Shown here: positions 22,691 through 64,000 of the stretch, piece by piece
Layout: the number at the start of each line of letters is the position of its first letter
Position numbering within the stretch: position 1 is the stretch's first letter
DNA from: a virus
Taxonomy: Duplodnaviria; Caudoviricetes
Reading direction: 5' to 3' (one strand)
IMG/VR virus record: IMGVR_UViG_3300046473_000190
Coordinates: 8,965 to 72,964 of that record
Length of the DNA stretch: 64,000 nucleotides
Position numbers and translations under genes: made by a program
Notes under the pieces: model-generated
Databases searched by the model: none
Told to the model about the DNA's origin: nothing
What the model saw: only the letters and a program-made list of their open reading frames with translations

Positions 22691-22691
22691 C

Positions 22692-41101: not shown

Positions 41102-41334
41102 AAGCCGATGACCAAATCTTTACCACTCCCGGCGTTGTTTTAAATCGCATTGCGTCGGTGTTCCACTGTCCGAAGGATCGGATTGAGGAGGTATTGGAGG
41201 AACTTATGGAGCGGCCGATAGAGAGGGCGGCGGGGTCCGAGGCCAGGCTAGCGGTTATTCGGCGGGCTTTGAACACGCCGGAGGCAGCGAGTGTGATTGA
41301 GATGGCGCAGGTGTTTTGGGATGGGGCGAAGTGA
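41098..41334 (+). CDS. hypothetical protein
   Basis: Overlaps both neighbours. Confidence 0.55.
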   Translation: MKADDQIFTTPGVVLNRIASVFHCPKDRIEEVLEELMERPIERAAGSEARLAVIRRALNTPEAASVIEMAQVFWDGAK

Positions 41335-44506: not shown

Positions 44507-44696
44507 CCGACCCACTAGGGATGAGATTGTCAAGGTGTTGCGCGATCTTGGCAACCTGCCTGCAGGCAAGTCCTATTGGGGGCCGGGAGATGGTCCAGAC
44601 AATGACGGAATGTGGTGTATCGATTGGGTAGGATGGCCGATTTCTGATTATTTACTAGCGGCGGCTGACGAGATCGAGAAAGCGAAAGATGGCTGA
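44499..44696 (+). CDS. hypothetical protein
   Basis: AAADEIE motif shared with preceding ORF. Confidence 0.5.
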   Translation: MADRPTRDEIVKVLRDLGNLPAGKSYWGPGDGPDNDGMWCIDWVGWPISDYLLAAADEIEKAKDG

Positions 44697-47716: not shown

Positions 47717-47959
47717 GTGTCTTATTTATCTGGGGCGCAGCATTTTTGGTTTTTGCAGTTGGCCCTTATTTCTTTTAAGGACGGTCAGGTGATGACGCCG
47801 TTATGGTTCTGGGCGGACGAGTATTGCGAAGCCGTGGCACGAAGTTATGTCAGAATTTGCAATGCTGGCGGGTCGTGCGGGAACGGTATCGAATGGTCTG
47901 TGCCCAAGAAATGGATGAGACCCTTTGAAAAAGACGAATGGCTGTGGCAATGGCTTTGA
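47717..47959 (+). CDS. hypothetical protein
   Basis: ORF track. Confidence 0.35.
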   Translation: MSYLSGAQHFWFLQLALISFKDGQVMTPLWFWADEYCEAVARSYVRICNAGGSCGNGIEWSVPKKWMRPFEKDEWLWQWL

Positions 47960-48798
47960 AAACCAAGCAATGCAAGCACGGCAAATTCACCTACTACGAC
48001 AACGATCGTTATATCGGCAAGCAATTGGACGTTCTTGGCTATTACAGCGAGAATGAAGTGCAGCTTCTGCTGAAGTTGGGGGGAGTTAATTTTGGTGTGG
48101 TTATTGATGTTGGGGCTAATATCGGCGCGCTGACGGTTCCGTTGGCCAAGGTCATCGACAAGGTTTATGCGTTCGAGCCGCAGCCGGCAATTTATGACTT
48201 GCTGTGCGCCAATATCATGCAGAACAACCTGACGAACGTAATTGCGAAAAAGGCGGCGGTTGGGTCCAAAAGCGGAGTAGCGGAAGTGCCGCGGTATGAC
48301 ATGGATGCTCCCGATATGAACACGGGAGCGGTTGCCGTCGTGCCAATTCCGAAGGGAATAGAGATACCGGACGAGGCCGTTGTGGTGCCGATGGAAAAAC
48401 TGGACAATCTGGTTCGTACCCGATGGCCCGTCAGGCTGATAAAAATCGACGTCGAGGGCATGGAAAGCGATGTTCTCAAAGGCGCGAAACGAATTATTAC
48501 GAATGACAGGCCCGTGCTTTATCTCGAAAATAATACGCCTGGGACGCCGGAATCGAAGGCGCTCATCCAGCAGATCATGGATATGGGTTATCAGTTGGAA
48601 TGGCATTTGCCGGTTCTGGAATGTTTGACGAACGCCACGCACCGGACGCTGACATTGTCCTCGAACATGGTCTGCGTAACGCCGCGGCACGTGGTGAGTA
48701 GTGCTCACGGGCCGGATTTCCATCCGATCACTAGCCCGGACGACAATTGGCACAATATTCCAAGTTATGCGCAGGCCATTGCGGCATGTGCGGGGTAG
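47938..48798 (+). CDS. FkbM-family methyltransferase
   Basis: VIDVGANIG...VYAFEPQP, LIKIDVEGMESDVLKGA...RPVLYLE. Confidence 0.9.
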   Translation: MAVAMALKTKQCKHGKFTYYDNDRYIGKQLDVLGYYSENEVQLLLKLGGVNFGVVIDVGANIGALTVPLAKVIDKVYAFEPQPAIYDLLCANIMQNNLTNVIAKKAAVGSKSGVAEVPRYDMDAPDMNTGAVAVVPIPKGIEIPDEAVVVPMEKLDNLVRTRWPVRLIKIDVEGMESDVLKGAKRIITNDRPVLYLENNTPGTPESKALIQQIMDMGYQLEWHLPVLECLTNATHRTLTLSSNMVCVTPRHVVSSAHGPDFHPITSPDDNWHNIPSYAQAIAACAG

Positions 48799-49946: not shown

Positions 49947-50387
49947 ATGAGCGTCACATCACATCGTAAGCTGCGCGACATAGCAGAAGCGCAGGTGGAG
50001 GGGGGCGATGTCAAGCAAGCCACACTCGCCGCGGTTGGCGATTATTCTGGCATCCGGGTCGGTCCATATCGAGTGCTGGTTGCCGTTGCCATCCGTCCCG
50101 CTAAACAAGGACTCCTATGGTTGCCCGACAAAGCGCAGGTCGAGGATCGCTTCCAGGGCAAATCCGGGTTGGTTCTCAAGGTTGGGCCGGGGGCTTTTAC
50201 CGATACGGCAGCGCATAAGTTCCATGGTTTTATCGTCAAGGAAGGCGATTGGGTTGGCTTTACGGCCAGTGACGGGCGGGAAGTATTCAAAACCGACCCG
50301 GATAGTCCTTCGGATGGGACGCCGTGCCGATTGTTCTGGGATCAGGATATCAGCATGTGGCTTGAGCATCCGTTCCTGATTTATTGA
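49947..50387 (+). CDS. groES: GroES-like co-chaperonin
   Basis: RVLV...GLLWLPD...GLVLKVGPGAF...VKEGDWV. Confidence 0.75.
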   Translation: MSVTSHRKLRDIAEAQVEGGDVKQATLAAVGDYSGIRVGPYRVLVAVAIRPAKQGLLWLPDKAQVEDRFQGKSGLVLKVGPGAFTDTAAHKFHGFIVKEGDWVGFTASDGREVFKTDPDSPSDGTPCRLFWDQDISMWLEHPFLIY

Positions 50388-50395
50388 GGTTGTCA

Positions 50396-51436
50396 ATGGC
50401 TGACGAACCGGAAATCGAAGTTCAGATTGAGGACAATCCACCGCCGACGTCTCAGGTGGAAGTCCCCCCTGAGAAGGCCGCAGCGGCACCAAAGACCGAC
50501 CCCGTTGCCGAACTCAAGGCACAGGTCGAAACGGCCCAAGCCGAGCGGGAACGTGAACGCCAGGGACGGCAGGAAGCCGATCGCCAAGCACAGGCCGACC
50601 GTGCTGCTCGCGCTGCGGCGGAACGGGATGCCGAGACAGTCCGCAGCGAGATTTCCGAAACGCGGTTATCGTCGGTGGATGCCGGAATTGCGGCGGCCAA
50701 TGCCGAAATCGCTGCAGCGGAAAATGATTCGATCTCCGCGCAGGAAGCCGGCGACTGGAAACGGAATACAGAAGCCGTAAAGCGGCTTGCTCGTGCCGAA
50801 GCCACGCGAATGCGGCTCGAGGAGGCCAAGAGTGATCTTGAATCCCAACGCACGTCGCTTGAGGAACGCCCGCAACGCACGCAACGGCAGGACGCTCCGG
50901 CTGCTTCATCTGATCCTGTCGAGGTATTTATTTCGGGGCGCGCATCGGAAACGCAACGATGGTTGCGTGCCCATCCAGAACACGCTCGAGCATTGGCGAT
51001 GACGATAGCCGGACAGGCGTCGGTCGAGGAGCAACGGCGCAGCGCCAAGGTCAATGCGGCTCATAATGATGCCATGGGTGAGGGATTTGCGCCGGACACG
51101 CCGGAGTATTTCGCCCACGTTGAGGAGTTTCTGGGCATGAATAAGAAGGAACCGGAGCCTGCCAAGACTGCGGCAGTTCCCAAGAAAGCGGCCGCGCTTG
51201 TCGCGCCGGTCTCATCGGCCGACGGTGGCGCGATGAACGGCAATTCGTCCGTGGTGAAACTCAGTCAGCGGGAGGCTATGGCGGCGCAGGATGGAACGCT
51301 GATTTGGAACTATCCGGATCCCACAGGACAGAATCGCTGGAAAAAGGGCGAACCGATTGGCATTCAGGAAATGGCCCGTCGTAAGCGTGAAGGCATGAAA
51401 CAGGGCCTTTATGACAAGACGTGGCTCGAGCAATGA
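50396..51436 (+). CDS. scaffolding protein (putative)
   Basis: Acidic coiled-coil, C-terminal VKLSQRE..A; between GroES and capsid genes. Confidence 0.65.
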   Translation: MADEPEIEVQIEDNPPPTSQVEVPPEKAAAAPKTDPVAELKAQVETAQAERERERQGRQEADRQAQADRAARAAAERDAETVRSEISETRLSSVDAGIAAANAEIAAAENDSISAQEAGDWKRNTEAVKRLARAEATRMRLEEAKSDLESQRTSLEERPQRTQRQDAPAASSDPVEVFISGRASETQRWLRAHPEHARALAMTIAGQASVEEQRRSAKVNAAHNDAMGEGFAPDTPEYFAHVEEFLGMNKKEPEPAKTAAVPKKAAALVAPVSSADGGAMNGNSSVVKLSQREAMAAQDGTLIWNYPDPTGQNRWKKGEPIGIQEMARRKREGMKQGLYDKTWLEQ

Positions 51437-51510
51437 GCGGCAAACGCGATATATCGTGGGATGATCCTGTGTCGGCTGTCGCACCGACCCCTATGGGAAT
51501 GGAGTTAATT

Positions 51511-52098
51511 ATGTCTGAAGAACAAGACACACCTGAACGTCGTCCGAGAGGCCGTCCGCGCAATCAGACGCGAGAGACAACGCGCGGCGAAGGGGCGTTT
51601 ATCGGACGCGGCGGCGAGACACTGACGCGGTCCCGCAAGGGTGGCATCGATCCATACCATGTTCCGTCCGAAATCGTCCCAGAGGGATGGTCGTACCAGT
51701 GGAATGCGGTGACGATTTACAACAATCCCGATTTGCTGGTCGGGCAGCAAATGCAGATGTCGGAAAACGGTTGGCGTCCTGTGCCCGCCGAACGGCATCC
51801 CGGCCGCTATGTGCCGTTCAACAAGACGGGCGATATCGTTCGCGACGGCATGCGGCTTGAGGAACGCCCCATCGGCATGACGGAACAGGCAAGAGCCGAA
51901 GAAGTCGCGGCGGCCATGCAGCAAATGCGCGATCGGGACGAAAGCCTGATGGGCAGCAAGGCCAATGTCCGCGGTGCCATGAAAAACGGATTTGAGATGA
52001 ACCCCGGACGCTATCGCGGCACAGGCGGTAGTTTGCGGATGAGTATTGATCCTGGCGTGGACATTCCGGCTCCAAGCCATAAAACTGTCGACAAATAA
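51511..52098 (+). CDS. conserved head-module protein
   Basis: PEGWSYQW...MSENGWRPV...IVRDGMRLEERP; GGAG RBS. Confidence 0.6.
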   Translation: MSEEQDTPERRPRGRPRNQTRETTRGEGAFIGRGGETLTRSRKGGIDPYHVPSEIVPEGWSYQWNAVTIYNNPDLLVGQQMQMSENGWRPVPAERHPGRYVPFNKTGDIVRDGMRLEERPIGMTEQARAEEVAAAMQQMRDRDESLMGSKANVRGAMKNGFEMNPGRYRGTGGSLRMSIDPGVDIPAPSHKTVDK

Positions 52099-52107
52099 GA
52101 GGTTGTC

Positions 52108-53037
52108 ATGAAACTGGTTATTTCGCTGGCGACGCGCGGTCGCCCGCAGCAATTGATTGACACCCTCACCAAGGACATCGCAACGATCAGCCAGGAAAAT
52201 ACGGTCCTGATGGTTCAAGTCGATGCCGACGACGCGCAAACCATCATGATGCTGCGGAACATGGCGCTTGATAAGCGTGTGCAAGTCAGCGTGAAGGAGC
52301 GCGAGGACACCATTGCGGCCAAATGGAATCGGGCGCTTGAGGAACCGGCCGATCTTTATATGATCAAAGGAGATGATGATCCGCTGACGGGCAAGGATGT
52401 CGACAGCAAGCTGTTGGAGGCCGCCAAAGCTTTCCCGGACGGCCTTGGCATGGTTTATGGGCACTATGCCAACCTGTCGTTTCCCGGTGTGATGTGTGTG
52501 ACGGCGGGCGTCACGGAACGGCTTCAGTGCATCATGCCGGAACATTTCCCGTATTGGTTCTGCGATCATTGGATGGACGATCTGGCGCGCATGATTGGGC
52601 GCATTGCCTTTGCCGATGTGCGGACGGATCAAAGCCAAGCCAAGCCGACACAGGAATGCCGGGAGCCGTTCTGGTGGGCGACTTGGTTTGATGCTGCGGC
52701 TGAACTTCGTCACGTTATCGCTGACGATCTTATCGCCAATCTCAAGGACGAGCCGTGGCGCAAGAAGATGTACAAGGCCAATTACCCTTGGATCGACATG
52801 CGGTCTCGTATGATTAATGACGGGGTACGCATGAACGCACGCCAACTGGAGTGGATGAACGGCCAACCGCTGTCACTCAAGGACGAGCGGTATCAGCGAG
52901 TGAAGGAAAAGGCCATTGCGCGGGTGCCGGAAATGCTAGCGATGATGGATAAGAAGGACGAGGCGGCCAAATTCGCCGAAATCCTCTATCCGTCGCCTAC
53001 CATTGCGGCCTTGCCGCGTGCCATCGGGGCCGTTTGA
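52108..53037 (+). CDS. GT-A fold (GT2-like) glycosyltransferase
   Basis: LATRGRP, VDADD, KWNRAL, KGDDD, YWFCDHW. Confidence 0.7.
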   Translation: MKLVISLATRGRPQQLIDTLTKDIATISQENTVLMVQVDADDAQTIMMLRNMALDKRVQVSVKEREDTIAAKWNRALEEPADLYMIKGDDDPLTGKDVDSKLLEAAKAFPDGLGMVYGHYANLSFPGVMCVTAGVTERLQCIMPEHFPYWFCDHWMDDLARMIGRIAFADVRTDQSQAKPTQECREPFWWATWFDAAAELRHVIADDLIANLKDEPWRKKMYKANYPWIDMRSRMINDGVRMNARQLEWMNGQPLSLKDERYQRVKEKAIARVPEMLAMMDKKDEAAKFAEILYPSPTIAALPRAIGAV

Positions 53038-53201
53038 TGAATTGGCGTTCGGCTGAGAGCGATCCCCCTCCGCGGTATGCCGTTGTCGAGGTCAGTCGCG
53101 ACAGGATAAAGACTTTGGACACGCTAATTTACAATCCACAGACCGAAAACTGGAACTTAAAGGGTCTTTATTGGCGATATCCAGATGCACGGGCCGCTTA
53201 A
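53037..53201 (+). CDS. hypothetical protein, 54 aa
   Basis: Manual translation MNWRSAESDPPPRY. Confidence 0.4.
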   Translation: MNWRSAESDPPPRYAVVEVSRDRIKTLDTLIYNPQTENWNLKGLYWRYPDARAA

Positions 53202-54558
53202 GGATAGGCTTGTACTTTGCCATGGGTGCTTTGACCTATTGCATTTGGGTCATATACGCCATTTGCAGGAGGCAAGAGCCCTTGGTGATCGTCTGATTGT
53301 CAGCGTGACGGCGGATCGGCACGTTCAAAAGGGCCTAGGACGCCCGCATTTCAGCGAAAATGAGCGTGTCGAGGCGCTAAAGGCGCTGGATTGCGTGGAC
53401 GATGCCTTTGTGTGCCAGTTTGGGACGGGCGCGGAGGTGATCGAGGCCATTCGGCCTGCCGTTTACTGCAAGGGCATTGATTACGCCGATCAGGTGGCTA
53501 CGAATCCCTATACGCAGGCTGAAATTGCTACGGTAACCGCTTATGGCGGCGAGTTTCACGTCACCAAGGCGCAGAAGTACTCGTCGTCGCGGCTGTTGAA
53601 CGCGCAACGGCTGTCATCCGAGGCGGCGGAATATCTAGCGGGCGTTCGCAGTAGGGGGTTTCTCTCCGAAATCAAGGATGCGATGGCAAAAGCCGACGAA
53701 TTGACCATCGGCTTTGTCGGGGAACAGATCATCGACGAATATCGCTATGTCAGAGCCCTTGGGAAGCCTTCCAAGGAGTTTATTCTGGCTACGGTGGCGG
53801 ACCACACCGAGCAATACAACGGCGGCGTAGAGGCCGCAGCGGCCCAATGTGAGTGGCGCGGGGCAAAAATCGTAACGGCGGGGGAACCGCTGACCAAGGT
53901 TCGGTATGTCGATGCGGATTTCAACAAGAAGCTGTTCGAGGTTTATTCGGGTCATAGTGTCGGTCTCGAGGGCGCTGCTCGTGATACCTTTCGCAGTCTG
54001 TTATGGGATGCTGTTCGTACTTGTGATTTACTGGTGGTCTTTGATTTCGGCCATGGCTTGTTTGGGGCAATTGAACGGGCGCAAATCAACGAAGCGCGGT
54101 GCGTTGCCGTCAACGTACAGACGAACGCCGGGAACGTAGGATTCAATCCCGTGGTCAAGTATCAGCAGGCTAACTTGGTCTGCATTGACGAACCGGAAGC
54201 ACGGTTTGCGACGCGGCGGCAGTGGGAACCGATGATTGACGTGCTTGGGGGTTTGTCGAGGCACTTCATGGGTGCTAAAATCATGGTGACACATGGACGA
54301 CAAGGCGCAGTCGTTTGGAATGACTTGGCGCAATGCATCACACAAATCCCAGCTTTTGCTACTCAAAACGCTGATACAATTGGTGCCGGAGACGCCTTTC
54401 TTTCGGCCGCTGCACCGCTGGTTGCTGTGGGCCTTGACTCGGAGATTGCTGCGTTCGTTGGCAATGTGGCAGGTGCGCTCAAAACACAAATTATCGGACA
54501 TCGACGGCATGTTACGCGAACCGAACTGATGACGAATGTGGAGGCGTTGTTGGCATGA
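53185..54558 (+). CDS. bifunctional nucleotidyltransferase plus PfkB sugar kinase (HldE/RfaE-like, reversed domain order)
   Basis: HGCFDLLHLGHIRHLQEARALGDRLIVSVTAD, KGIDY, YSSSRL; DFGHG, VTHGRQG, DTIGAGDAFLS. Confidence 0.88.
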   Translation: MHGPLKDRLVLCHGCFDLLHLGHIRHLQEARALGDRLIVSVTADRHVQKGLGRPHFSENERVEALKALDCVDDAFVCQFGTGAEVIEAIRPAVYCKGIDYADQVATNPYTQAEIATVTAYGGEFHVTKAQKYSSSRLLNAQRLSSEAAEYLAGVRSRGFLSEIKDAMAKADELTIGFVGEQIIDEYRYVRALGKPSKEFILATVADHTEQYNGGVEAAAAQCEWRGAKIVTAGEPLTKVRYVDADFNKKLFEVYSGHSVGLEGAARDTFRSLLWDAVRTCDLLVVFDFGHGLFGAIERAQINEARCVAVNVQTNAGNVGFNPVVKYQQANLVCIDEPEARFATRRQWEPMIDVLGGLSRHFMGAKIMVTHGRQGAVVWNDLAQCITQIPAFATQNADTIGAGDAFLSAAAPLVAVGLDSEIAAFVGNVAGALKTQIIGHRRHVTRTELMTNVEALLA

Positions 54559-54932
54559 CACTGATAGCAAAACGTTCCCTCTTGGCCGGGATGATGTCGC
54601 TATTGGGTGCTCCGGCCATTGTCCATGCCCAAAACATCATGCCGGTGAAGAAGCCGTCGTTGGCTTTGCCGTTGGATTATGAGTTGTTAGCTGCGGATTT
54701 TATATTGCCCTATGATGTGGTTTTGCGCCTTGGTGGTGGGGATGGTGCCGCAGGGCGTCGGTTGCTTGACCGCTGGATTGCTGGCGTACAAAGCGTTATT
54801 GAGGCGGAGCGTCGGCAGCAGGCGGACTTGCGCGAAGTGCTTGACATGGTCAACGGCACCGCCGGATACGGGAAGGCAGTGGGCGGGTGGAATATGGCAG
54901 GGACGGTGAAGGTGTATGACATGAAGACTTGA
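54555..54932 (+). CDS. hypothetical protein with Tat-like signal
   Basis: KRSLLAGMMSLLGAPAIVHAQNIMPV. Confidence 0.55.
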   Translation: MTLIAKRSLLAGMMSLLGAPAIVHAQNIMPVKKPSLALPLDYELLAADFILPYDVVLRLGGGDGAAGRRLLDRWIAGVQSVIEAERRQQADLREVLDMVNGTAGYGKAVGGWNMAGTVKVYDMKT

Positions 54933-55017
54933 ACGAGGCGTCTATGTGGTCCCCTCCAGATGAAGCCTCGTCCAGCAGGGGCGGGCGGCAGCGCCGAACA
55001 ACGCAGCCGTCCGCCAC

Positions 55018-55046
55018 TTGACACCGGATAAAGGATATGCTATACT
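55018..55046 (+). promoter_or_regulatory. near-consensus sigma70 promoter
   Basis: TTGACA-N17-TATACT. Confidence 0.85.
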
Positions 55047-55076
55047 GTTTTTGTTTAGTCAGAGAGGGGACTTACA

Positions 55077-55283
55077 ATGTTGGATGTTCTGAAGGACGGC
55101 CCGTTCCGCTATCTACACTGCCAAGCAACCGGCCAATTAATCTTGACGCTCTCTAAAGCACGCAATGCTAACGGCCGAGAAACCGGACGCTTTGTGGAGT
55201 ATGAAGGTGAGGACGCTCCGGTTGAAAAAACATTGCGACAATGGAAAGCCATCGCTCGCAAGCGTGTAGGGTATCGGGTCTAG
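55077..55283 (+). CDS. moron-like hypothetical protein
   Basis: Own promoter and GAGGGG RBS. Confidence 0.6.
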   Translation: MLDVLKDGPFRYLHCQATGQLILTLSKARNANGRETGRFVEYEGEDAPVEKTLRQWKAIARKRVGYRV

Positions 55284-55293
55284 AGGGGACGTT

Positions 55294-55815
55294 ATGCTCA
55301 CACTTTCCTCGTTTTCCACCGAACTGGCGCGAGTACTTGCGACTGTCGATGAGGCGGATTTTGAATGGGCAGTGGAAATTGCGCGTGAGAGGAGAAGTGT
55401 CTATTTTATTGGCAATGGCGGGTCGGCAGCGATCGCAAGCCATATGGCAATCGACTGGATGAACAAGGGCGGGTTCAGTACGCGCGCCCTGAATGACCCT
55501 GCGGCCCTGACGTGCTTGGCCAATGATTACGGCTATGAGGACGTATTCAGACGGCAATTGCGAGATATTTCGGGGAAGGATTTGCTGGTGGCAATTTCTA
55601 GTTCGGGCAAGTCGCCCAGTATCTTAACGGCCGCCAAATATGCTTGGGAGGAACGTGGTTCTGGTTTATTGACGCTTTCGGGGTTTAACGTCACCAACCC
55701 ATTGAACAGCTATAAGGGCGGGGTGGGTATGCACATCCCCTCTGACAACTACGCCATCGTCGAAAATGCGCATATGGCGATTCTGCATGCGATGCTAGAG
55801 GCGTTGAAGGCATGA
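55294..55815 (+). CDS. gmhA: phosphoheptose isomerase-like SIS protein
   Basis: IGNGGSAAIASH, LTCLANDYGYEDVF.RQ, AISSSGKSPSI, ENAH. Confidence 0.85.
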   Translation: MLTLSSFSTELARVLATVDEADFEWAVEIARERRSVYFIGNGGSAAIASHMAIDWMNKGGFSTRALNDPAALTCLANDYGYEDVFRRQLRDISGKDLLVAISSSGKSPSILTAAKYAWEERGSGLLTLSGFNVTNPLNSYKGGVGMHIPSDNYAIVENAHMAILHAMLEALKA

Positions 55816-56399
55816 CGCCCGCAGAGCTTATCGCCTTCGAAGACGATATCGCCGCCGAATTTGCGGCTGGCAACATCAAGGCCCCGGTCCACCTGTCAGG
55901 TGGTAATGAGGTGGAATTAATCGAGATATTCAAGAGCGTGGCGCCAGAGGACTACCTGTACAGCACTTGGCGCTCTCACTATCATTGTCTGCTCAAGGGT
56001 GTGCCGCCCGCCGAAGTCAAGGCGGCAATCATGGCGGGACGGTCGATTGCGCTGTGCTTCCCCGAGTATCGTATTCAGTCGTCGGCTATTGTTGGCGGCA
56101 TTTGTCCCTGGGCTGTGGGGACTGCCTTGTCGATCAAGGAGCGCGGCGGCGAGGAGGAGGTTTGGGCCTTTGTTGGCGATATGGCTGCAGAGACCGGAGC
56201 CTTCCATGTCAGTCAGAAATATGCCCAGAACTTCAATTTGCCGGTCAATTGGGTGGTCGAGGACAACGATATCGGCGGGGCGCATGTGGTGACGAGTCGG
56301 GTGTGGAAAAGCGACAGTTTGTGGGATCGGGCTGGATTGTTCTATGACTACAAGTTGACGCGACCGTTCGTGGGTATTGGAAAGCACATACCGCTGTGA
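55812..56399 (+). CDS. TPP-dependent enzyme, E1 alpha-like subunit (short)
   Basis: PVHLSGGNE, STWRSHYH, SAIVGG, FVGDMAAETG...VEDND. Confidence 0.85.
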   Translation: MTPAELIAFEDDIAAEFAAGNIKAPVHLSGGNEVELIEIFKSVAPEDYLYSTWRSHYHCLLKGVPPAEVKAAIMAGRSIALCFPEYRIQSSAIVGGICPWAVGTALSIKERGGEEEVWAFVGDMAAETGAFHVSQKYAQNFNLPVNWVVEDNDIGGAHVVTSRVWKSDSLWDRAGLFYDYKLTRPFVGIGKHIPL

Positions 56400-56926
56400 G
56401 TTACTTTTCCGAGCTCCAGCGGGCTATGGAAATGCTGGCGGCGCAGCCCCGTGTCGTGTTCATGGGGCAGGGGGTGTTGTACCCGTCTACCGCGATGTCC
56501 TCGACGTTCGACACGGTGCCGGAGCGTTTGCGGCTTGAGATGCCGGTCATGGAGGATGAACAATTGGGGATGGCGGGCGGAATGGCTCGCGACGGCATGC
56601 TGCCGGTCTGCGTATTCCCCAGATGGAACTTCCTGATCTGTGCGGCAAATCAATTGCTTAACCATCTAGATCGGCTACCGCTTTATTCCGGCTACAAGCC
56701 GAAGGTTATCATCCGGACGGCTATTCCCTCGACGGAACCATTTTATCCGGGGCCGCAGCATGACGATGATTTCACCCTGCCCTTTGCGGATATGGCGCGA
56801 ACCATTAAGTTTGTCCGGCTAGGATCGGAGGAGATGATCGTGCCGGCCTATACGGTGGCGATGCAGTCCGATGTGAGCACGGTTTTGGTGGAATATTCGG
56901 CGAAATACAGGGACGAGAGGAAATGA
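56396..56926 (+). CDS. TPP-dependent enzyme, E1 beta pyrimidine-binding domain only
   Basis: VFMGQGV, EMPVMEDEQLGMAGGMA, NQLLNHLD, GPQH; no C-terminal domain. Confidence 0.85.
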   Translation: MSYFSELQRAMEMLAAQPRVVFMGQGVLYPSTAMSSTFDTVPERLRLEMPVMEDEQLGMAGGMARDGMLPVCVFPRWNFLICAANQLLNHLDRLPLYSGYKPKVIIRTAIPSTEPFYPGPQHDDDFTLPFADMARTIKFVRLGSEEMIVPAYTVAMQSDVSTVLVEYSAKYRDERK

Positions 56927-57066
56927 ACATCGCCTCGGAATTCTATTTATCGCCGTTGAACCCGTTGATTTATGGTTGGCCTGGCGATTGGCGTTCCCGT
57001 GAGAACATGCGTTGGCCGTTATGGCGTTCGTACGTTGTTTTGCCGATAGGTGAGAGGGGCTAGGAA

Positions 57067-57270
57067 ATGACTTATGTGCTGTTCTGGTTCGTTGCGGGGA
57101 TATTATTTTTTGTGTTGATACTTTACACAAATCCAAAGACGGTTATGGGTGACTTTCGTGCTAGGCCGTTATTTTGCGTGTTGGTTACAACGCACTTGGT
57201 TATACTGTGGCCTTACTTTGCCCTTGTCCATGTAAAACTGCTTCTAGCGGAGAAAAAGCATGGCAGATGA
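57067..57270 (+). CDS. two-TM membrane protein
   Basis: Hydrophobic helices. Confidence 0.5.
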   Translation: MTYVLFWFVAGILFFVLILYTNPKTVMGDFRARPLFCVLVTTHLVILWPYFALVHVKLLLAEKKHGR

Positions 57271-57460
57271 CATTTCCCCGCTTCATGTTATTGTACGGTT
57301 TGGGTCCGCCATTCCGGACGCGGCGCAGGGCGAAGTCATGTTATTCATGGAAAAGCACCTGCGTCGCTCCGGGATACAAGCCGAGGTGTTCAAGGAAACC
57401 ATGGTGGATGACAGCAAGTTACGGCGCCTGATGAGTCCGGCGCAAAGGGCAAAGCTTTGA
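57260..57460 (+). CDS. hypothetical protein
   Basis: DDSKLRRLM motif. Confidence 0.55.
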   Translation: MADDISPLHVIVRFGSAIPDAAQGEVMLFMEKHLRRSGIQAEVFKETMVDDSKLRRLMSPAQRAKL

Positions 57461-57657
57461 CCAAGATCGCAGCCGTTCTCGCTGTACTCGTTCTCGCCCC
57501 GTTGCTTGGCGGGTGTGCCATGTTCCTAGCGGGGGCCGCTGGCGCGATTGTCTATCATGAGTGGGAAAGGCATGCCCCGCCCCGCGGCTATCACTGGTGC
57601 TACCAAGCGGGCGGCGGTTCGCCGGTTATATGCAGAAACAGGTATCGCGGAAGATGA
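57457..57657 (+). CDS. small lipoprotein
   Basis: Lipobox LGGC. Confidence 0.55.
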   Translation: MTKIAAVLAVLVLAPLLGGCAMFLAGAAGAIVYHEWERHAPPRGYHWCYQAGGGSPVICRNRYRGR

Positions 57658-58268
57658 AGTGGCCGACTATTATCCTCGTCGCACTATCTACCTTGGTGAC
57701 AGCATGCTCGCAAAGCAACCCGCCGCCGCCCGTCGTTGCTGGTTGGCAAGTCGGGTACTCGGAAGGTACTACACTGTCGTATCCGACTTCCTCGCTATGG
57801 AGTTTCACGTTTCCGCAGTATCCCGGTCATGTCAACATGGTCACCAAGACGGTCGCGGGCCTGAAAGGATCGCAGATCACTGCGGTGTTCCAGGAGACGG
57901 AATCTAACCCGCAATGGTTCTGGGCGTTTGATGCTGGCAATACGTGCAATCCGGGCTCGCTGCCGCAGATCCATTTATATTTCCAGCGCGTTGGTGATGA
58001 CTTCTCCGGCGTCGGCGACAAGCAGTATTATCGCTGGTGGTCAAGGGGCTTCAATATTGAGGCCGGGACAATAGACGTCTCGTTTACATTTGATCCGTCC
58101 CTTTGGATCAGCGTCTACGGGCTGCAAAACCCGACCATGTTTGCTGCAGCGCTCGCCAACGCCAGCAGCGTCGGCATGGTATTCGGCGGCGGCTGCTTTG
58201 CTGGGCACGGCGTTGCGCTCAAGGGCGGCAACGCTGCAATGACATTGAGGAGCTTCGTGGTGCAATGA
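57654..58268 (+). CDS. lipoprotein
   Basis: MKWPTIILVALSTLVTAC lipobox. Confidence 0.65.
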   Translation: MKWPTIILVALSTLVTACSQSNPPPPVVAGWQVGYSEGTTLSYPTSSLWSFTFPQYPGHVNMVTKTVAGLKGSQITAVFQETESNPQWFWAFDAGNTCNPGSLPQIHLYFQRVGDDFSGVGDKQYYRWWSRGFNIEAGTIDVSFTFDPSLWISVYGLQNPTMFAAALANASSVGMVFGGGCFAGHGVALKGGNAAMTLRSFVVQ

Positions 58269-59422
58269 CATCTCCCCTGCCTGAATTCTTCGACCACGTC
58301 ATTACTGGCTCACCGGTCGGTAACATCAACGATTATGTCCTAGATGGGACCAAAATAGGATTCTGGTCTGAGCGGGTGAAGGCTTGGGAACGGGGCGAGC
58401 GTATTGCGCCAGTCACCATGGACGTGGCTTGGACACGGCAGTGTAATGCGGCCTGCTCGTTCTGTTTCGCTCAGATGCAGGCTTCGCACGGACAGGTCAT
58501 CACGCTCAAACACGCGAAGGACTTCCTCGATGACGCGGCGGAAATCGGTGTCAAAGGCATCTCGCTCATCTCGGACGGCGAAAGCACCGTCGTCCCGTGG
58601 TACGAAGAAAGCATCGAACACGCTGCGAACCTTGGAATCAAGATTGGTGTGGGCACAAATGGAGTTCGACTCAAAAGGAAAGTTCTCGAACGGATTCTAC
58701 CGCATATTTCGTATCTCCGATACAATTTTAGTGCTGGAGAAATGCAGCGATACAAAGAAATAATGGGGCTGAAGGAGCGAGATTATTGGCAGGTGATCCA
58801 GAACGTCCGGGACACGATGGAGATCGTGCGGCGGGATAATTTGGCCTGTACGGTCAACCTGCAGATGGTCACCATGCCGGAATTCCATGACCAGATCATG
58901 CCGCTGACGCGGCTGGCGCAGGAATTGCGGCCGCACTACCTTATTTTCAAGCATTGTAGCGATAATGATGACGGGTTTTTGGGTGTTGACTACAAGAAGT
59001 ACGATGCGCTTTACGACACGTTTAAGCACGTTGAGACTATGGGCGATAAGGACTTCCGGATTATCGTCAAGTGGGCGAGGTTGGCTGACGAAGGGAAACG
59101 GCACTATAGTCGTTGCTTGGGACCCCCCTTCCAACTTCAAATGTCCGGTAATGGTCTCATATCCACGTGCGGATTCCACTTCAACGAGAAGTTCAAGAAG
59201 TTCCACATGGGTAATATCGTGGACACCCGATTCAGGGATATCTTTCGTTCGGAGCGATATTGGGACGTGATCGGGTATCTCGCCAGCCCGGAGTTCGATC
59301 CGCGATCTCGATGCGGAACCCAGTGTTTGCAAACGCACACGAATCAGTGGCTATTCGACTACACTGAGGGGAAGGTGGATTTCCCGGCTTCGCTCCCGCC
59401 ACCGCATTTGGAGTTTCTATGA
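58265..59422 (+). CDS. radical SAM enzyme with SPASM/twitch domain
   Basis: CNAACSFC (CxxxCxxC), SDGES, RCLGP...GNG..STCG...MGNI...CGTQC. Confidence 0.9.
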   Translation: MTSPLPEFFDHVITGSPVGNINDYVLDGTKIGFWSERVKAWERGERIAPVTMDVAWTRQCNAACSFCFAQMQASHGQVITLKHAKDFLDDAAEIGVKGISLISDGESTVVPWYEESIEHAANLGIKIGVGTNGVRLKRKVLERILPHISYLRYNFSAGEMQRYKEIMGLKERDYWQVIQNVRDTMEIVRRDNLACTVNLQMVTMPEFHDQIMPLTRLAQELRPHYLIFKHCSDNDDGFLGVDYKKYDALYDTFKHVETMGDKDFRIIVKWARLADEGKRHYSRCLGPPFQLQMSGNGLISTCGFHFNEKFKKFHMGNIVDTRFRDIFRSERYWDVIGYLASPEFDPRSRCGTQCLQTHTNQWLFDYTEGKVDFPASLPPPHLEFL

Positions 59423-59772
59423 GAGTAACGAAACGCAGGTTTATGGGAGGTGTCGCGGCTATTGCCGCAATGATAGGGGTGTTGCGGCCACAATCCGTTA
59501 GTTCCGCTCCTGGTTGGCAAGCGGTGTATGCGCATGCCGGGGAGACAGTGACCTGTGAAAATGGACACCCGATCTGTGATTTTGTCGAGACCGTTTATCT
59601 CGGCCAAAGTCAGGATTTGGGACGTCAATTAGGGAAATGGCGACAGAAGGCTCCCAAAACGGGGGACGGCTTGCCGCAGCGGTGTGTGCAGTGTGATGCG
59701 CGCTGGGCGGAGCGTGTTGGAGTTTTTCATTTTGAAGATGGGTGGCGCGATCCGCACCGCTACATCTCCTAA
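59419..59772 (+). CDS. Tat-signal protein with Cys/His metal-binding motif
   Basis: TKRRFMGGVAA; CENGHPIC and CVQC. Confidence 0.55.
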   Translation: MRVTKRRFMGGVAAIAAMIGVLRPQSVSSAPGWQAVYAHAGETVTCENGHPICDFVETVYLGQSQDLGRQLGKWRQKAPKTGDGLPQRCVQCDARWAERVGVFHFEDGWRDPHRYIS

Positions 59773-59790
59773 CCACGAAAGGGACGTCCC

Positions 59791-60039
59791 ATGGGTTGCT
59801 TTAGCTTGGAATGGCTGGAACAGATTCTGGTCTGGTGCGTCATTATTGGCGCTATCATCGCTATCGTGCGATTGCTGATTCCGATGGCGACGGATTGGAT
59901 CAGCCCGATTATCAGTCAGGTGCTCAATATCGTTCTGTGGGCTGTCGTCTGCATTATCATAATCTGGATTGTCTTTGCCCTGCTCAGTTGCCTGATTGGC
60001 ATGGGCGGTGGCGGCTTACTGCTGCCGCATCACCATTAA
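59791..60039 (+). CDS. small multi-TM membrane protein
   Basis: Almost fully hydrophobic. Confidence 0.6.
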   Translation: MGCFSLEWLEQILVWCVIIGAIIAIVRLLIPMATDWISPIISQVLNIVLWAVVCIIIIWIVFALLSCLIGMGGGGLLLPHHH

Positions 60040-60139
60040 TGCGCAGACGGCCCTTCGGGTGGTATATTGGCATTGCTTGCGCGATGCTGCTGTCGGCGTG
60101 GTTCTTGACTGAAATTAGCATGCGGATTTGGCCGGTGCC

Positions 60140-61252
60140 GTGAAGTTTGTTCTTTCCTACAAGAACAGTCACCACCGGCGATATTTCATCGGGTTGGGAG
60201 CTGAACTCATCTTGGCCGGGCACGATGTCAATATCGTGCATCAGGAAACGCCCGGCGAGGCGTTTGCCGGTGCGGATGTGGTGATGGAAGTCAACCGTGG
60301 CCGCACAGATAGAATACCGCGCACGGCCGTCCATATCCCGTGGATTCAGGACCATATTCTTTGGGAGGCCCCGGGCTACGATGAATGCGCTCATCCGAGA
60401 GACATGATTTATACGTACGGACATGGGCCGATTATCGGCGTTCCGTGTCAGGACTGGCCGAATTATCGCGGATCGTTATTGGTTGCCGTCGACGCTAAGT
60501 TATTGGCGTATCCGCCCGCAGCGCAGAATCTGGACCTCTCGATTGTCGGCTACATTTCGGATCCGGAGCAGAGGTGGAAGGCTCGTTCATTGGAGTCTGT
60601 GTCTGTCTCGGAGATTGCTCGCTGTATTGCGGAGACGATGGAAGCTGTCTATACGCCGCTGCGCGGCGAATTAGACCAGCAACTAACGGCGTATCAGCTT
60701 TGGGCTGGAATGGAACGCAAGTTTCCCGATATCTGGGACGTCCTCTATAAAGAGTATGCGGGATACATAGTTCATGAACTGGCGAGGATGCGGGATCGTG
60801 TGGCCATTGCGCGTTTAATATTGTCTGTATCGGAGAACGTGGAGTTCCGCGGGTTTAATTGGGAGCTGTGGCCCGAGTTTGCAAAATGGGGAAAGCCGTT
60901 TTATGAAGACAGGGAACAGGTGCTGAATCTCTATCAACGGTCCCGCATTAACGTGCATAACAATATTTTCGGGTTTGCGCTTCATGACAGGGTTTTGGAG
61001 GCCATGGCGGTTGGCGGGTTCGTTATGGCTAATGAATCACCGCATTTAGGCAAGGCGGGGCAAATGACGGAATGTTTTGCGCCGGGGTTCCATTATGGCG
61101 AGTATAACGCAGATACGTTTTGCGAACAGGCTAGGAAATGGCTGGGAAACCCGCAAATGCGCCAGCGCGGCATTGTTGAGTCGCGTAAGATCATCAAGGA
61201 TCGGCATTTGTGGGCGCATCGGGCCAAGCAGCTATTGAGGGATCTGGCGTGA
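60140..61252 (+). CDS. GT-B glycosyltransferase (CgeB/Glyco_trans_1_2-like)
   Basis: LYQRSRINVHN..., DRVLEAMAVGGFVM, HLWAHRAKQLL. Confidence 0.8.
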   Translation: MKFVLSYKNSHHRRYFIGLGAELILAGHDVNIVHQETPGEAFAGADVVMEVNRGRTDRIPRTAVHIPWIQDHILWEAPGYDECAHPRDMIYTYGHGPIIGVPCQDWPNYRGSLLVAVDAKLLAYPPAAQNLDLSIVGYISDPEQRWKARSLESVSVSEIARCIAETMEAVYTPLRGELDQQLTAYQLWAGMERKFPDIWDVLYKEYAGYIVHELARMRDRVAIARLILSVSENVEFRGFNWELWPEFAKWGKPFYEDREQVLNLYQRSRINVHNNIFGFALHDRVLEAMAVGGFVMANESPHLGKAGQMTECFAPGFHYGEYNADTFCEQARKWLGNPQMRQRGIVESRKIIKDRHLWAHRAKQLLRDLA

Positions 61253-61995
61253 CCGGCCTGCCGTATATTTCCGAGAGCGACTACAAAAGTTGGACCCAGT
61301 CGCAAATCGTGTTGGACTGGCTGCTGGCCAAGAAGATCAAGCCGCATCACAAGGTATTGGAAATCGGGCCCGGTCGTGGGCCCTGGGATCGTGCCGATGC
61401 CTTTATTGACTTCGATGTGAAATTTGTGCCGAAAGGAAAGGGAATTAAGGCCGATTTGGCCGAGGATTTGATACCCTTTCCGAACAAGACGTTTGATTTT
61501 GTTTATTGTCGTCATACGCTAGAGGATATGTTCAACCCGTTTCATGCCTGTCGGGAAATGTCTCGCGTAGGAAAGGCCGGATATATCGAAACGCCATCCC
61601 CGGCAGCGGAAATGGCTAAGGGGGTGGACGCCAACCCTAATCCGGGCGAGGGGTATCGTGGCTATCATCATCACCGCTATATTGTCTGGCCAGAAGGCAA
61701 CACATTGCATTTTGTGCCCAAATATCCCTTGATAGAGTTTATCCGGTGTGAGGATGTTGCTTTGTGCAATGTGTTGCGGGAGGGTGCAGCCGCTTGGAAT
61801 TCCTATTATTTGTGGAAAAACGAGGTAAGATTTAAGCGATACGAATACCCATTTGACTTTAGTCTTGGGGAATACGGTGAGGTTCTGAGTCGCGCTATTA
61901 ATGAAAACCAAAAGTCCAGCCATGAATTTTCCAAGATTATAGCGGAATTTGAATGGCAACGAGACGTTAATAAGCAGAGGAAAGCTGTGTCATGA
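61249..61995 (+). CDS. class I SAM-dependent methyltransferase
   Basis: VLEIGPGRGP, IPFPNKTFDFVYCRHTLED, GYIETP. Confidence 0.8.
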   Translation: MTGLPYISESDYKSWTQSQIVLDWLLAKKIKPHHKVLEIGPGRGPWDRADAFIDFDVKFVPKGKGIKADLAEDLIPFPNKTFDFVYCRHTLEDMFNPFHACREMSRVGKAGYIETPSPAAEMAKGVDANPNPGEGYRGYHHHRYIVWPEGNTLHFVPKYPLIEFIRCEDVALCNVLREGAAAWNSYYLWKNEVRFKRYEYPFDFSLGEYGEVLSRAINENQKSSHEFSKIIAEFEWQRDVNKQRKAVS

Positions 61996-63008
61996 AGAAG
62001 GTGTTTATTTTCGTTCCCGCTTTCGGCAATACCCTGACGGCCACGACTTTTCTGTCCACCCATCAGATCAGCCAGATGTTAACGTCGAAGTCGGTGGGGG
62101 CGTCGGTTTCCACGCTATCGTTCCCCGATATAGCGGAACTGCGGTCGATGGTTGCCACCATTTGGCACGATACCATGCCGGACATTGACTACCTCTTGTT
62201 TATCGATGCCGATATGGGGATCGATCCGAATATGGTTCTCGACATGCTGGTGTTTGATGAGCCGATCGTGGGGACGATTTATCCGCAACGCAAATTGCCG
62301 GTGTCGTGGGCCGGGTCCGGCGAGGGATCGCCGCAAAGCGAACGCCGCGGCAATTTCATGAAGGTTGAGGGGGTGGGAATGGGCTGTACTTTAATACACA
62401 AGAGCGTGGTAAAAACCATATTGGAGAAGTTTCCGGAGCTTGCGGACTACCGCATTGATCTGCATCCGGCGGCAGGCATTTTGCGGCAGGCGGGGGCCAA
62501 TCGAATTATTCGATGTTTTGAGAAGTTGGATATTCCGGAACGCGGCGTCGTCAGCGAAGACCTGTCGTTTTGCATCCGGTATCGGCGCTGTGGCGGCCAG
62601 GTATGGGCAGCGATTGGTTATGACGTGTCTCATGTCGGCCAATTCGACTATCGTGGGAACTACCTGCAGCACATCACGCAAGGTCAGCAGATGGCGGAAA
62701 TGCAGCAGAAAGTGGCGGAGGCTGGGCAGCAACCAGCGCCTCCGCCTCCGGGATGGATGCCGCAACCCAGCCAGCCGCCTGTTATGGCCCCAATGTTGCC
62801 AGCACAGCAGGTGCAGTTCCAGCAACCAATGATCGCGCAGGTTTCCGTCAATGGCGGCGATGCCTCTATTGATGCGCGATCATTGCAGAAAGATTACGAA
62901 AAGGCGCGGCAGGCGATGAATGAGACCGCCTTTGGCGATCCTCCGAAACGCAAGCGTGGCCGTCCGAGGAAGCAAAAGCCGCTTGCCGCGTCGGAGCAAT
63001 CGGCGTAG
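61992..63008 (+). CDS. GT-A fold glycosyltransferase with Gln/Pro-rich tail
   Basis: YLLFIDADMG (DxD), GMGCTLI, SEDLSFC.R....GGQVW...VSHVG. Confidence 0.8.
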   Translation: MKKVFIFVPAFGNTLTATTFLSTHQISQMLTSKSVGASVSTLSFPDIAELRSMVATIWHDTMPDIDYLLFIDADMGIDPNMVLDMLVFDEPIVGTIYPQRKLPVSWAGSGEGSPQSERRGNFMKVEGVGMGCTLIHKSVVKTILEKFPELADYRIDLHPAAGILRQAGANRIIRCFEKLDIPERGVVSEDLSFCIRYRRCGGQVWAAIGYDVSHVGQFDYRGNYLQHITQGQQMAEMQQKVAEAGQQPAPPPPGWMPQPSQPPVMAPMLPAQQVQFQQPMIAQVSVNGGDASIDARSLQKDYEKARQAMNETAFGDPPKRKRGRPRKQKPLAASEQSA

Positions 63009-63524: not shown

Positions 63525-63660
63525 TTTCCTGCGCGCCGCAGGAAAGACGATGATCGGACGAGCAGCGCCTGCAGTCTTGATCCCCTGATCGTCACGCGCC
63601 GTGACGGTTTAACCGCCCCACTAACCATGGCAGCGCCTGCCGGGTACGGGCTGATAGCCC
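63525..63660 (+). other. structured leader with four G-CGC-C triloop hairpins
   Basis: Stems of 9, 4 (extendable), 7 and 5 bp, all with a CGC loop. Confidence 0.65.
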
Positions 63661-63679
63661 TAGCTCGGAGCCTAACGCC

Positions 63680-64000
63680 GTGGCTAACACACAGTCGCAG
63701 TACGGATTCGCCCATTTCGGCTATTTGCCTGGGTATGCCGTCGACTATCAATTGACGCAGGTTCCCATCCGTCCGGCCTACTCGACGCAAATCGGGTTTG
63801 GCGATCCGGTCGTCAAAGAAGCAACCAACTCGGCTTTTATCGCCTTGGCGACGCCGACAACCGTCACATCCAACGTCCTGATGGGCATTTTTCAGGGTTG
63901 TTGGTATACGCCAAGCGGTGGTGGCGCACCGATTTACTCGCCATTCTGGCCTGGAGCACAGGGCGGCACGGTCGCAACCGCGTACATCATCAACAGTCCG
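63680..64000 (+). CDS. capsid decoration/stabilising protein preceding major capsid (3'-truncated)
   Basis: GGAG plus GTG; MANTQSQYGF...IGFGDPV...GIFQGCWY...SPFWP, family seen before MCP in such podophages (from memory). Confidence 0.65.
   Translation, partial: MANTQSQYGFAHFGYLPGYAVDYQLTQVPIRPAYSTQIGFGDPVVKEATNSAFIALATPTTVTSNVLMGIFQGCWYTPSGGGAPIYSPFWPGAQGGTVATAYIINSP

Follow-up and report, generated by a model that had tools for sequence, protein, structure and literature searches.

A candidate nucleotide-sugar and glycosylation pathway conserved in the head operon of a clade of tailed phages

Introduction

Two-carbon branches are added to nucleotide sugars by thiamine diphosphate (ThDP) enzymes, such as YerE in the biosynthesis of yersiniose, and by E1 alpha/beta pairs such as AviB1/AviB2. 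To our knowledge, phage virion glycosylation has been demonstrated only recently, and only with host-supplied sugars; the mycobacteriophages concerned reportedly rely on the sugar nucleotides of their hosts. Here, we describe a block of sugar-pathway genes within the head operon of a tailed phage (Duplodnaviria; Caudoviricetes), known from the IMG/VR record IMGVR_UViG_3300046473_000190. The whole stretch of DNA analysed, referred to below as the window, comprises 64,000 nucleotides (bases 8965-72964 of the 72,964-bp record), and the block occupies window positions 52108-63008.

Mycobacteriophages are an established case of virion glycosylation (Freeman et al. 2023, as cited in PMC12619734). 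Sugar genes are also found in cyanophages, where they are usually read as modifiers of the host surface, as outlined in PMC12801897. In the cyanomyovirus S-SM2, a protein in which E1 alpha and E1 beta are fused (38% identical to the pair described here) is encoded among genes 191-216, together with a carbohydrate kinase, a nucleotidyltransferase, several glycosyltransferases (GTs) and two phosphoheptose isomerases. Thus, a first-pass annotation of the window, made from its sequence, understated the matter in holding that phages are known to carry single genes of this kind; comparable sets have long been annotated in cyanomyoviruses, and it is the chemistry of the present pathway that is uncharacterised. 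A further group of phage clusters is directed at DNA: in the account given in bioRxiv 10.1101/2023.12.21.572611, TarP-related phage GT-A enzymes glycosylate DNA, a set of kinase, cytidylyltransferase and GT makes heptosyl-5-hydroxymethylcytosine (heptosyl-5hmC), and DNA-sugar clusters can lie near structural genes.

We tentatively read the block as a phage copy of an uncharacterised nucleotide-sugar pathway, combined with phage-specific GTs and expressed with the head genes, for which a head protein would be the likeliest acceptor; as a whole, this reading falls just short of an even chance.

Enzyme genes of the block

The gene classes that the first-pass annotation had named for this interval were all recovered where it placed them, on the + strand. 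The enzymes and the small protein p66 are as follows.

52108..53037, + strand: GT_A309, a GT-A (GT2-like) glycosyltransferase and the first core gene (phrog_14945, E 1e-5, a weak match; AlphaFold)
53185..54558, + strand: nucleotidyltransferase-kinase fusion (NT-kinase), CTP_transf_like at residues 12-135 and PfkB at residues 327-437
55294..55815, + strand: GmhA-like SIS phosphosugar isomerase (profile and NCBIfam)
55812..56399, + strand: E1 alpha-like ThDP subunit (E1a), 195 amino acids (aa), pyrophosphate-binding domain only (E1_dh, E 1e-11; TIGR03182, E 4e-20)
56396..56926, + strand: E1 beta-like ThDP subunit (E1b), 176 aa, pyrimidine-binding domain only (phrog_34187, E 2e-20; weak Transket_pyr)
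57260..57460, + strand: p66, a small conserved protein with an invariant DDSKLR motif, accompanying the radical SAM gene throughout the clade
58265..59422, + strand: radical S-adenosylmethionine (SAM) enzyme (rSAM), CxxxCxxC, with a reduced SPASM/twitch-type C-terminal domain (Pfam, NCBIfam, alignment)
60128..61252, + strand: GT374, with a CgeB-type (Glyco_trans_1_2) GT-B-like C-terminal domain (Pfam PF13524, E 3e-15)
61210..61995, + strand: class I SAM methyltransferase, one of the conserved core genes (Pfam, NCBIfam), its true start probably downstream of 61210
61992..63008, + strand: GT338, a GT-A glycosyltransferase over residues 1-235, followed by a Gln/Pro-rich tail ending in KRKRGRPRK (AlphaFold)

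For the SIS isomerase, a profile of 8 phage sequences matched all solved GmhA structures (E 1e-29 to 1e-24), and the protein keeps the GmhA signature motifs GNGGS, NDYGYE..VFS.Q and ISSSG.S. Its score against the NCBIfam gmhA model (69 bits, cut-off 209) supports assignment at the family level only, and Asp and Glu occupy two positions taken as the GmhA metal site, which in solved GmhA structures are presumably Glu and Gln. The adjoining NT-kinase had been labelled HldE-like, and both domains of HldE are indeed present, but in the opposite order: the rfaE domain II match (NCBIfam) is N-terminal and the rfaE domain I match C-terminal, both far below their equivalog cut-offs, and the HldE equivalog itself scores 111 bits (cut-off 521). 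The HxGH and GAGD motifs of this protein are invariant in relatives, and the best solved relatives of its NT domain are cytidylyltransferases.

E1a and E1b correspond to the two halves of the fused family phrog_34187, of 405 positions (alpha 7-198, beta 241-404). The ThDP motif is intact in E1a (VGDMAAETGAF...VVEDN), and E1b carries the activating-Glu motif MPVMEDEQLGMAGGMA, compared with what we take to be its consensus.

The rSAM open reading frame (ORF) opens at 58103, with the probable true start at 58265. Residues C60, C64 and C67 of the CxxxCxxC motif are invariant, in agreement with the radical SAM part of the earlier label, whereas the SPASM domain that it also proposed is a reduced, twitch-like one. 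Five C-terminal Cys are conserved (C231, C284, C302, C350 and C354), not the seven of SPASM (Pfam SPASM, E 1.6e-4), and this set would fit a single auxiliary cluster of the twitch-like kind. rSAM is the most conserved gene of the block, and its best NCBIfam match is the viperin family, at 51 bits against a cut-off of 180. For p66, neither Pfam nor the Atlas returned a match.

Sequence support for GT_A309 and GT338 is weak, and structure prediction was therefore used. The AlphaFold model of GT_A309 (pLDDT 88) has a GT-A fold with TarS, TarP and PcManGT as the top Foldseek matches, and its DxDD and DDDP motifs are conserved. The model of GT338 (pLDDT 92) likewise has a GT-A fold, nearest to A197 of Sulfolobus turreted icosahedral virus (STIV), the collagen hydroxylysine GTs and Mimivirus R699, with A64R of Paramecium bursaria chlorella virus 1 (PBCV-1) lower; its relatives in BFVD are fused to FkbM methyltransferases. 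Profile searches of the PDB with these two proteins, and single-sequence searches with GT374 and the methyltransferase, gave no usable match.

The tails of GT338 homologs vary, being rich in Gln, Ala and Pro and ending either in an AAE peptide or in a basic stretch, and the upstream head-module protein p225 also has an RGRP motif. Most homologs end in the conserved AAE peptide after a Gln/Ala-rich linker, and an AT-hook-like tail was found in 11 of 120 only. These tails could be docking or packaging signals.

The core enzymes contain no membrane segment. A search of the complete genome with TIGR01656 (GmhB, the HAD-IIIA 7-phosphatase) returned nothing at E 0.1 or better, and a host GmhB enzyme could stand in for the absent phosphatase. 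Pfam scans of the block ORFs gave no SDR-type match for HldD (no genome-wide search for it was made) and no dehydratase or SDR that would form a 4-keto sugar, nor did they return any flippase, polymerase, ligase or polyprenyl-phosphate GT family.

Conservation in the head operon of related phages

A portal search yielded 352 related viral stretches, and the comparison rests on the 80 that were fetched. We identified a nine-gene core in four near-complete relatives, always in the order GT_A309, NT-kinase, SIS, E1a, E1b, p66, rSAM, methyltransferase and GT338, bounded by p350-p225 upstream and by c203 and the major capsid protein downstream. The bounding genes in the window are listed here.

50384..51436, + strand: p350, a charged, Ala/Glu/Arg-rich protein, scaffold-like by composition, with homologs in 47 of 82 related loci
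51421..52098, + strand: p225, a conserved head-module protein with an RGRP (AT-hook-like) motif, which always directly precedes the block
63680..64000, + strand: start of c203, a cement/decoration-like head protein forming the downstream boundary of the block, after which comes the major capsid protein

The block therefore lies, as first described, between a scaffold-adjacent gene and the capsid operon, and the synteny check proposed at that stage showed it to be an integral part of the head operon that related phages share. The upstream context at p350 is kept across the clade. In one relative (L090), stop/start overlaps link the core genes to each other and to the head genes. Compared with this phage, the four relatives have a capsid protein 87-90% identical, a portal about 51% identical and an rSAM 70-80% identical.

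Thirteen more related loci show a block that begins likewise. Several relatives lack the E1 pair and keep p66 and rSAM; two, otherwise without the block, have GT338 alone directly before c203; and in 24 more basal relatives the portal-to-capsid interval spans 3.6-6.2 kb and holds no sugar genes. These graded variants indicate that the block entered the head operon of one subclade step by step. This subclade is large: we identified 432 homologs of GT338 and 2167 of rSAM at E 0.001 or better, the best 120 of GT338 being 62-72% identical outside its own near-identical cluster and the best 120 of rSAM at least 62% identical. The longest contigs that carry such homologs are phage-sized, one of 124 kb being the exception to an upper limit of about 73 kb.

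The portal-to-capsid interval is an insertion hot spot. In one relative (G004), the same interval of the head operon encodes a Ro60/TROVE-vWA protein and an HNH endonuclease (L092 2662-3966 and 6295-6822). Some rSAM homologs (P0243, P0267 and P0277) are interrupted by inteins with Hint and LAGLIDADG domains.

Recurrence of the sugar-making genes in other phages and bacteria

Outside the clade, rSAM and the E1 pair recur among other sugar genes. The megaphage LR756501 has the order E1b-rSAM-E1a amid two sugar C-methyltransferases, an FkbM methyltransferase, a Fringe-like GT and a GT2. Two viral contigs (L004 and L005) hold the E1 pair amid GT2, GT11, RmlC-, DegT- and 4,6-dehydratase-type genes, L004 having the 4,6-dehydratase and lacking rSAM. 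The flanks of the E1 cluster in L004 encode a DNA helicase and endonuclease VII, not structural proteins, which rules out a head-operon position as a general rule.

At 28 loci of unrelated phages, with rSAM 36-61% identical, the neighbouring 10 kb include the NT-kinase (14 of 28), E1a (13 of 28) and SIS (12 of 28), and at none of these loci did we find the GTs, methyltransferase or structural genes of this phage. An rSAM relative occurs in 11 of 401 sampled alphaproteobacterial genomes, one of them a metagenome-assembled genome (MAG) in which the relative sits on a binned phage contig. The four alphaproteobacterial loci fetched all encode rSAM (49-52% identical), a full-length NT-kinase in the reversed order and E1a; SIS was present in two of the four and, by this query, E1b in one, and one bacterial E1 beta is full-length and pyruvate dehydrogenase-like. 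We found no near-identical copies in hosts, which, coupled with a lack of conservation among phages, the first-pass annotation had set against its own reading; bacterial counterparts of the block proteins are 27-52% identical. An rSAM profile search of 185,579 species genomes, using narrow patterns, gave a single match, on a 67-kb contig in a Rhizobiales MAG. This contig (L096/L125, G007 C73) was considered as a host copy and rejected, being a phage of the same clade (capsid 90% and rSAM 70% identical).

In an exhaustive search, the rSAM family comprised 140 clusters at E < 1e-30, and its distant members include fusions to an acetolactate synthase (ALS)/YerE-type ThDP enzyme, a cytidylyltransferase (twice), a class I methyltransferase or a DegT aminotransferase. 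The recurrent adjacency and the fusions indicate that SIS, NT-kinase, the E1 pair and rSAM form one nucleotide-sugar pathway. The earlier reading of a heptose-type sugar with C2 branching gains support from the occurrence of the E1 pair in nucleotide-sugar clusters and from the association of rSAM with ThDP enzymes and nucleotidyltransferases. On sequence grounds, rSAM is predicted to tailor nucleotide sugars in concert with the ThDP enzyme; the sugar-making core is mobile and the GTs are lineage-specific.

Proposed pathway and product

The scheme that we propose reaches, in its substrate, step order, product and acceptor, beyond the observed enzyme families, head-operon conservation and gene linkage on which it is built. 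The GmhA-like isomerase would convert a ketose phosphate, sedoheptulose 7-phosphate or one like it, to an aldoheptose phosphate, which the PfkB domain would phosphorylate and the HxGH domain would then turn into a nucleoside diphosphate (NDP)-sugar, with the 7-phosphatase step supplied by the host or bypassed. rSAM, with its single auxiliary-cluster domain and aided by p66, may oxidise or otherwise activate a sugar carbon, after which the minimal E1 alpha/beta ThDP enzyme would attach a two-carbon unit, probably from pyruvate, and the methyltransferase would methylate the branched product. Soluble GT_A309 and GT338, with GT374 in this phage, could pass the sugars to a cytoplasmic acceptor, the likeliest being a protein on the head surface, c203 (cement-like) or the capsid protein, that is glycosylated as the head assembles. 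The product would probably be an unusual branched, methylated seven-carbon sugar.

By analogy with enzymes such as BtrN and the anaerobic sulfatase maturases, we infer that rSAM may turn a sugar alcohol into the ketone needed for ThDP carboligation. This idea fits the lack of a 4,6-dehydratase here and the converse situation in L004, which has the dehydratase and no rSAM. We regard the most specific version of the proposal as possible but doubtful, namely that the clade, a large one of uncultured phages from soil, coats its head (the cement-like protein or the capsid) with a C-branched, methylated heptose and that the twitch-type rSAM readies NDP-heptose so that a minimal ThDP enzyme of the E1 type can add carbon.

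Destination of the sugar

Glycosylation of the virion is our tentative first choice of target, held at a little under even probability. The core keeps a fixed place in the head operon of relatives, where its genes overlap head genes, and in some relatives a lone GT338 stands directly before cement-like and capsid genes. The predicted fold of GT338 resembles those of protein and capsid GTs, and, as a lead, c203 resembles phage cement proteins. The first-pass annotation had argued from late-operon position to decoration of the virion; the head-operon placement is indeed conserved, although position alone excludes no other target.

This phage additionally encodes a GT41, which only one of the four block-bearing relatives shares and which therefore represents a system independent of the block. 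Being of the HMW1C/OGT type, it is a candidate worth considering for cytoplasmic N- or O-glycosylation of c209 and the capsid protein. In c209 (L002 3589-4218) there are seven N-x-S/T sequons in 209 aa, and in the capsid protein (L002 740-1654) five.

Several observations weigh against the pathway and the virion target proposed here. The canonical heptose pathway is incomplete, with no GmhB-type phosphatase in the genome, and the scores of SIS and NT-kinase lie far below the equivalog cut-offs, so that the sugar may be something other than a heptose. The block ORFs include no dehydratase that forms a keto sugar, leaving the role of rSAM a conjecture, and the rSAM relatives that bear fusions are only 20-26% identical to this rSAM. 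On the side of the target, an acceptor was looked for in the sequences and none was identified: the Ser/Thr content of c203 is equal in phages with and without the block, and capsid residues specific to block-bearing phages (e.g. S159/K163/S164), considered as a clue to the acceptor, are confounded by phylogeny. A modelled GT-A fold does not reveal the acceptor, GT_A309 resembling the teichoic-acid GTs TarS and TarP, and the family with collagen GT-like folds also includes lipooligosaccharide glycosyltransferases. This phage has a strong host-type promoter at 55018 from which early expression is possible, and the related sugar cluster in L004 adjoins DNA-metabolism genes.

That the sugar is instead added, during lytic infection and on the cytoplasmic face, to a host envelope polymer such as the lipopolysaccharide (LPS) core, O-antigen, capsule or another lipid-linked glycan is in our view unlikely. 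Such a modification could block superinfection or the adsorption of progeny to debris, as speculated for the LPS-like clusters of cyanomyoviruses, and it would agree with the nearest matches of GT_A309, which glycosylate wall teichoic acid, with the presence of pathway counterparts in bacterial chromosomes, with the similar S-SM2 set outside the head module and with the lipoprotein, Tat-signal and membrane genes and sigma-70 promoter inserted in this phage's block. These envelope-directed genes are, however, not kept in relatives, where the core is joined to the head operon through overlapping genes, and the core enzymes without membrane segments come with no flippase, polymerase, ligase or polyprenyl-phosphate GT in the Pfam scans of the block. 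No integrase, tyrosine or serine recombinase or resolvase was found in the complete genome; a lasting conversion is therefore not expected and lysogenic LPS conversion is unlikely, in line with the first-pass annotation's preference for virion decoration over host LPS conversion. A soluble product, either a nucleotide-sugar or glycoside directed at host metabolism or defence, or a modification of a non-virion host or phage protein, is distinctly improbable. The sugar-making core travels without this phage's GTs in other phages and bacteria, and viperin, the low-scoring best match of rSAM, makes nucleotide analogues; yet two conserved GTs, and a third here, argue for a macromolecular acceptor, and a soluble product would make the fixed head-operon position hard to account for.

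We consider it very unlikely that the GTs hypermodify phage DNA with a sugar against restriction, in the manner of 5hmC-linked hexose, heptose or Kdo. The block resembles known DNA-sugar clusters in its TarP-like GT-A enzyme, its kinase and cytidylyltransferase-like domains and its neighbourhood of structural genes, and GT338 here ends in the AT-hook-like KRKRGRPRK, a tail confined to the minority of homologs counted above. The complete genome lacks, however, a thymidylate-synthase-like enzyme (PF00303), a TET/JBP enzyme (PF12851) and a C5-cytosine methyltransferase (PF00145), without which there is no known route to a hydroxymethyl acceptor base. Least probable of all, and highly so, is that rSAM and p66 are a peptide-modifying pair, like those for ribosomally synthesised and post-translationally modified peptides, that has nothing to do with the sugar genes. 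Radical SAM enzymes of the SPASM type often act on peptides, and p66 lies upstream of rSAM in every clade member with coverage, but p66 lacks both Cys and a typical core motif and does not accompany rSAM in the megaphage or at 27 of the 28 unrelated-phage loci, and members of the rSAM family adjoin, or are fused to, ThDP, nucleotidyltransferase, methyltransferase and DegT enzymes.

Genes specific to this phage

In addition to the conserved core, the block contains a promoter and small genes that are particular to this phage.

54555..54932, + strand: sec125, with an N-terminal signal peptide (from sequence); no homolog in relatives
55018..55046, + strand: near-consensus sigma-70 promoter, TTGACA-17-TATACT with TG, absent from relatives
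55077..55283, + strand: p68, a 68-aa moron-like gene behind the promoter, specific to this phage
57067..57270, + strand: tm67, a two-segment membrane protein, specific to this phage
57457..57657, + strand: small lipoprotein, lipobox LLGGC, specific to this phage
57654..58268, + strand: lipoprotein of about 204 aa, lipobox LVTAC after the start MKWPTI, specific to this phage
59419..59772, + strand: tat117, Cys-rich, with a twin-arginine-type signal (KRRF), specific to this phage
59791..60039, + strand: tm82, a small membrane protein, specific to this phage

None of sec125, p68, tm67, tm82, the two lipoproteins, tat117, GT374 and the promoter has a counterpart in relatives. The lipoproteins of the first-pass annotation accordingly have real lipoboxes but are not conserved. 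The envelope-directed small genes (57457-58268 and 59419-60039), unique to this phage, are distant from the endolysin at 22593, and may serve in superinfection exclusion or have a spanin-like role. The promoter and p68 are inserted between the NT-kinase and isomerase genes (55018-55283). This promoter is one of only four near-consensus sigma-70 sites in the genome, the other three of which drive early mini-gene arrays; together with p68 it looks like a moron, and it may give early expression of the downstream sugar genes.

Genome setting

The order of genes in this part of the genome is large terminase, portal, FkbM methyltransferase, GroES-like, p350, p225, the block, c203 and major capsid protein. 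The markers upstream of p350 are as follows.

41316-43061: large terminase, a head-operon marker
44689-46917: portal, a head-operon marker
47938..48798, + strand: FkbM-family methyltransferase (Pfam Methyltransf_21, E 3.6e-16; TIGR01444, E 1e-30)

The FkbM methyltransferase lies outside 52108-63008, is shared only with the closest relative (L006) and is possibly an extra sugar O-methyltransferase. The major capsid protein has relatives annotated as capsid in GenBank phages, and the likeness of c203 to phage cement proteins is an ESM Atlas lead only, with scores of 0.82-0.84. The head genes are flanked by p291 (window 48844-49719) and c125 (L002 2964-3341), both very basic, low-complexity proteins rich in Gly, Pro, Lys and His, which may be internal head or DNA-binding proteins. 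The endolysin is encoded away from the block, at 22593-23171.

The phage record is rated complete by CheckV. The first 435 nt of the contig (L002 1-435) equal the last 435 nt (window 63566-64000) with 14 mismatches, which are mostly spaced by three bases or a multiple of three. The assembly is circular or terminally redundant, despite the IMG/VR label "linear", and built from two population variants; because its ends overlap, the gene at 63680 runs on at the contig start into c203. A near-identity DNA search with the block against 50,697 phage records gave no match, and the host labels of MAGs linked to the clade conflict, between Korobacteraceae and Rhizobiales.

Comparison with known systems

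The block shares with the ADP-/NDP-heptose pathway (GmhA, HldE or HldA and HldC, GmhB, HldD) a GmhA-type SIS protein and a protein with PfkB and HxGH elements. It differs from that pathway in the reversed domain order, the sub-cut-off scores, the lack of GmhB and the changed metal-site residues, and in the addition of tailoring by radical SAM, ThDP and methyltransferase enzymes. With ThDP-dependent C-branching of sugars it has in common an E1-type ThDP enzyme within nucleotide-sugar clusters, as well as an rSAM relative fused to a YerE/ALS-type enzyme; in contrast to YerE- and AviB-type branching, the subunits are half-size (195 and 176 aa), there is no 4,6-dehydratase and rSAM is a constant partner. 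Whatever the target may be, the constant pairing of rSAM, ThDP enzyme and reversed HldE-like protein, in phages and bacteria alike, points to an undescribed nucleotide-sugar tailoring reaction. If our reading is true, the sugar route would be one not previously described, and a cassette shared with bacteria would have its chemistry assigned for the first time.

Among phages, the cyanomyovirus "LPS/cell-wall" clusters (S-SM2, P-SSM2) offer a gene set comparable to the block, in one run in S-SM2. The cyanophage cluster lies, however, in a variable island by tRNA and nrd genes, not in the head operon, and is without this rSAM. The DNA-sugar clusters, as presented by Pyle et al., share GT-A/TarP-like GTs with the block, and one of them makes heptose with a kinase-type enzyme and a cytidylyltransferase, but the 5mYOX or ThyS-like enzyme and C5-methyltransferase given there as defining are absent from this genome. 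Lysogenic-conversion systems that modify O-antigen (Gtr/Oac type) differ in turn, since this phage has no recombinase and its core enzymes no membrane segment. These comparisons advise caution against automatic "LPS gene" or auxiliary metabolic gene labels for such genes.

Virion and capsid glycosylation in mycobacteriophages, chloroviruses, mimiviruses and STIV shares with the block virus-encoded soluble GT-A enzymes and methyltransferases. In contrast to the mycobacteriophages, this phage brings its own sugar pathway, and it would, if the reading holds, be the first tailed phage known with a complete rare-sugar pathway of its own for virion glycosylation. Were an abundant clade of soil phages to have such a self-contained pathway in its head operon, virion glycosylation would be extended to phages of Gram-negative-type hosts, and this would suggest a glycan coat that varies between relatives in the way that O-antigens do.

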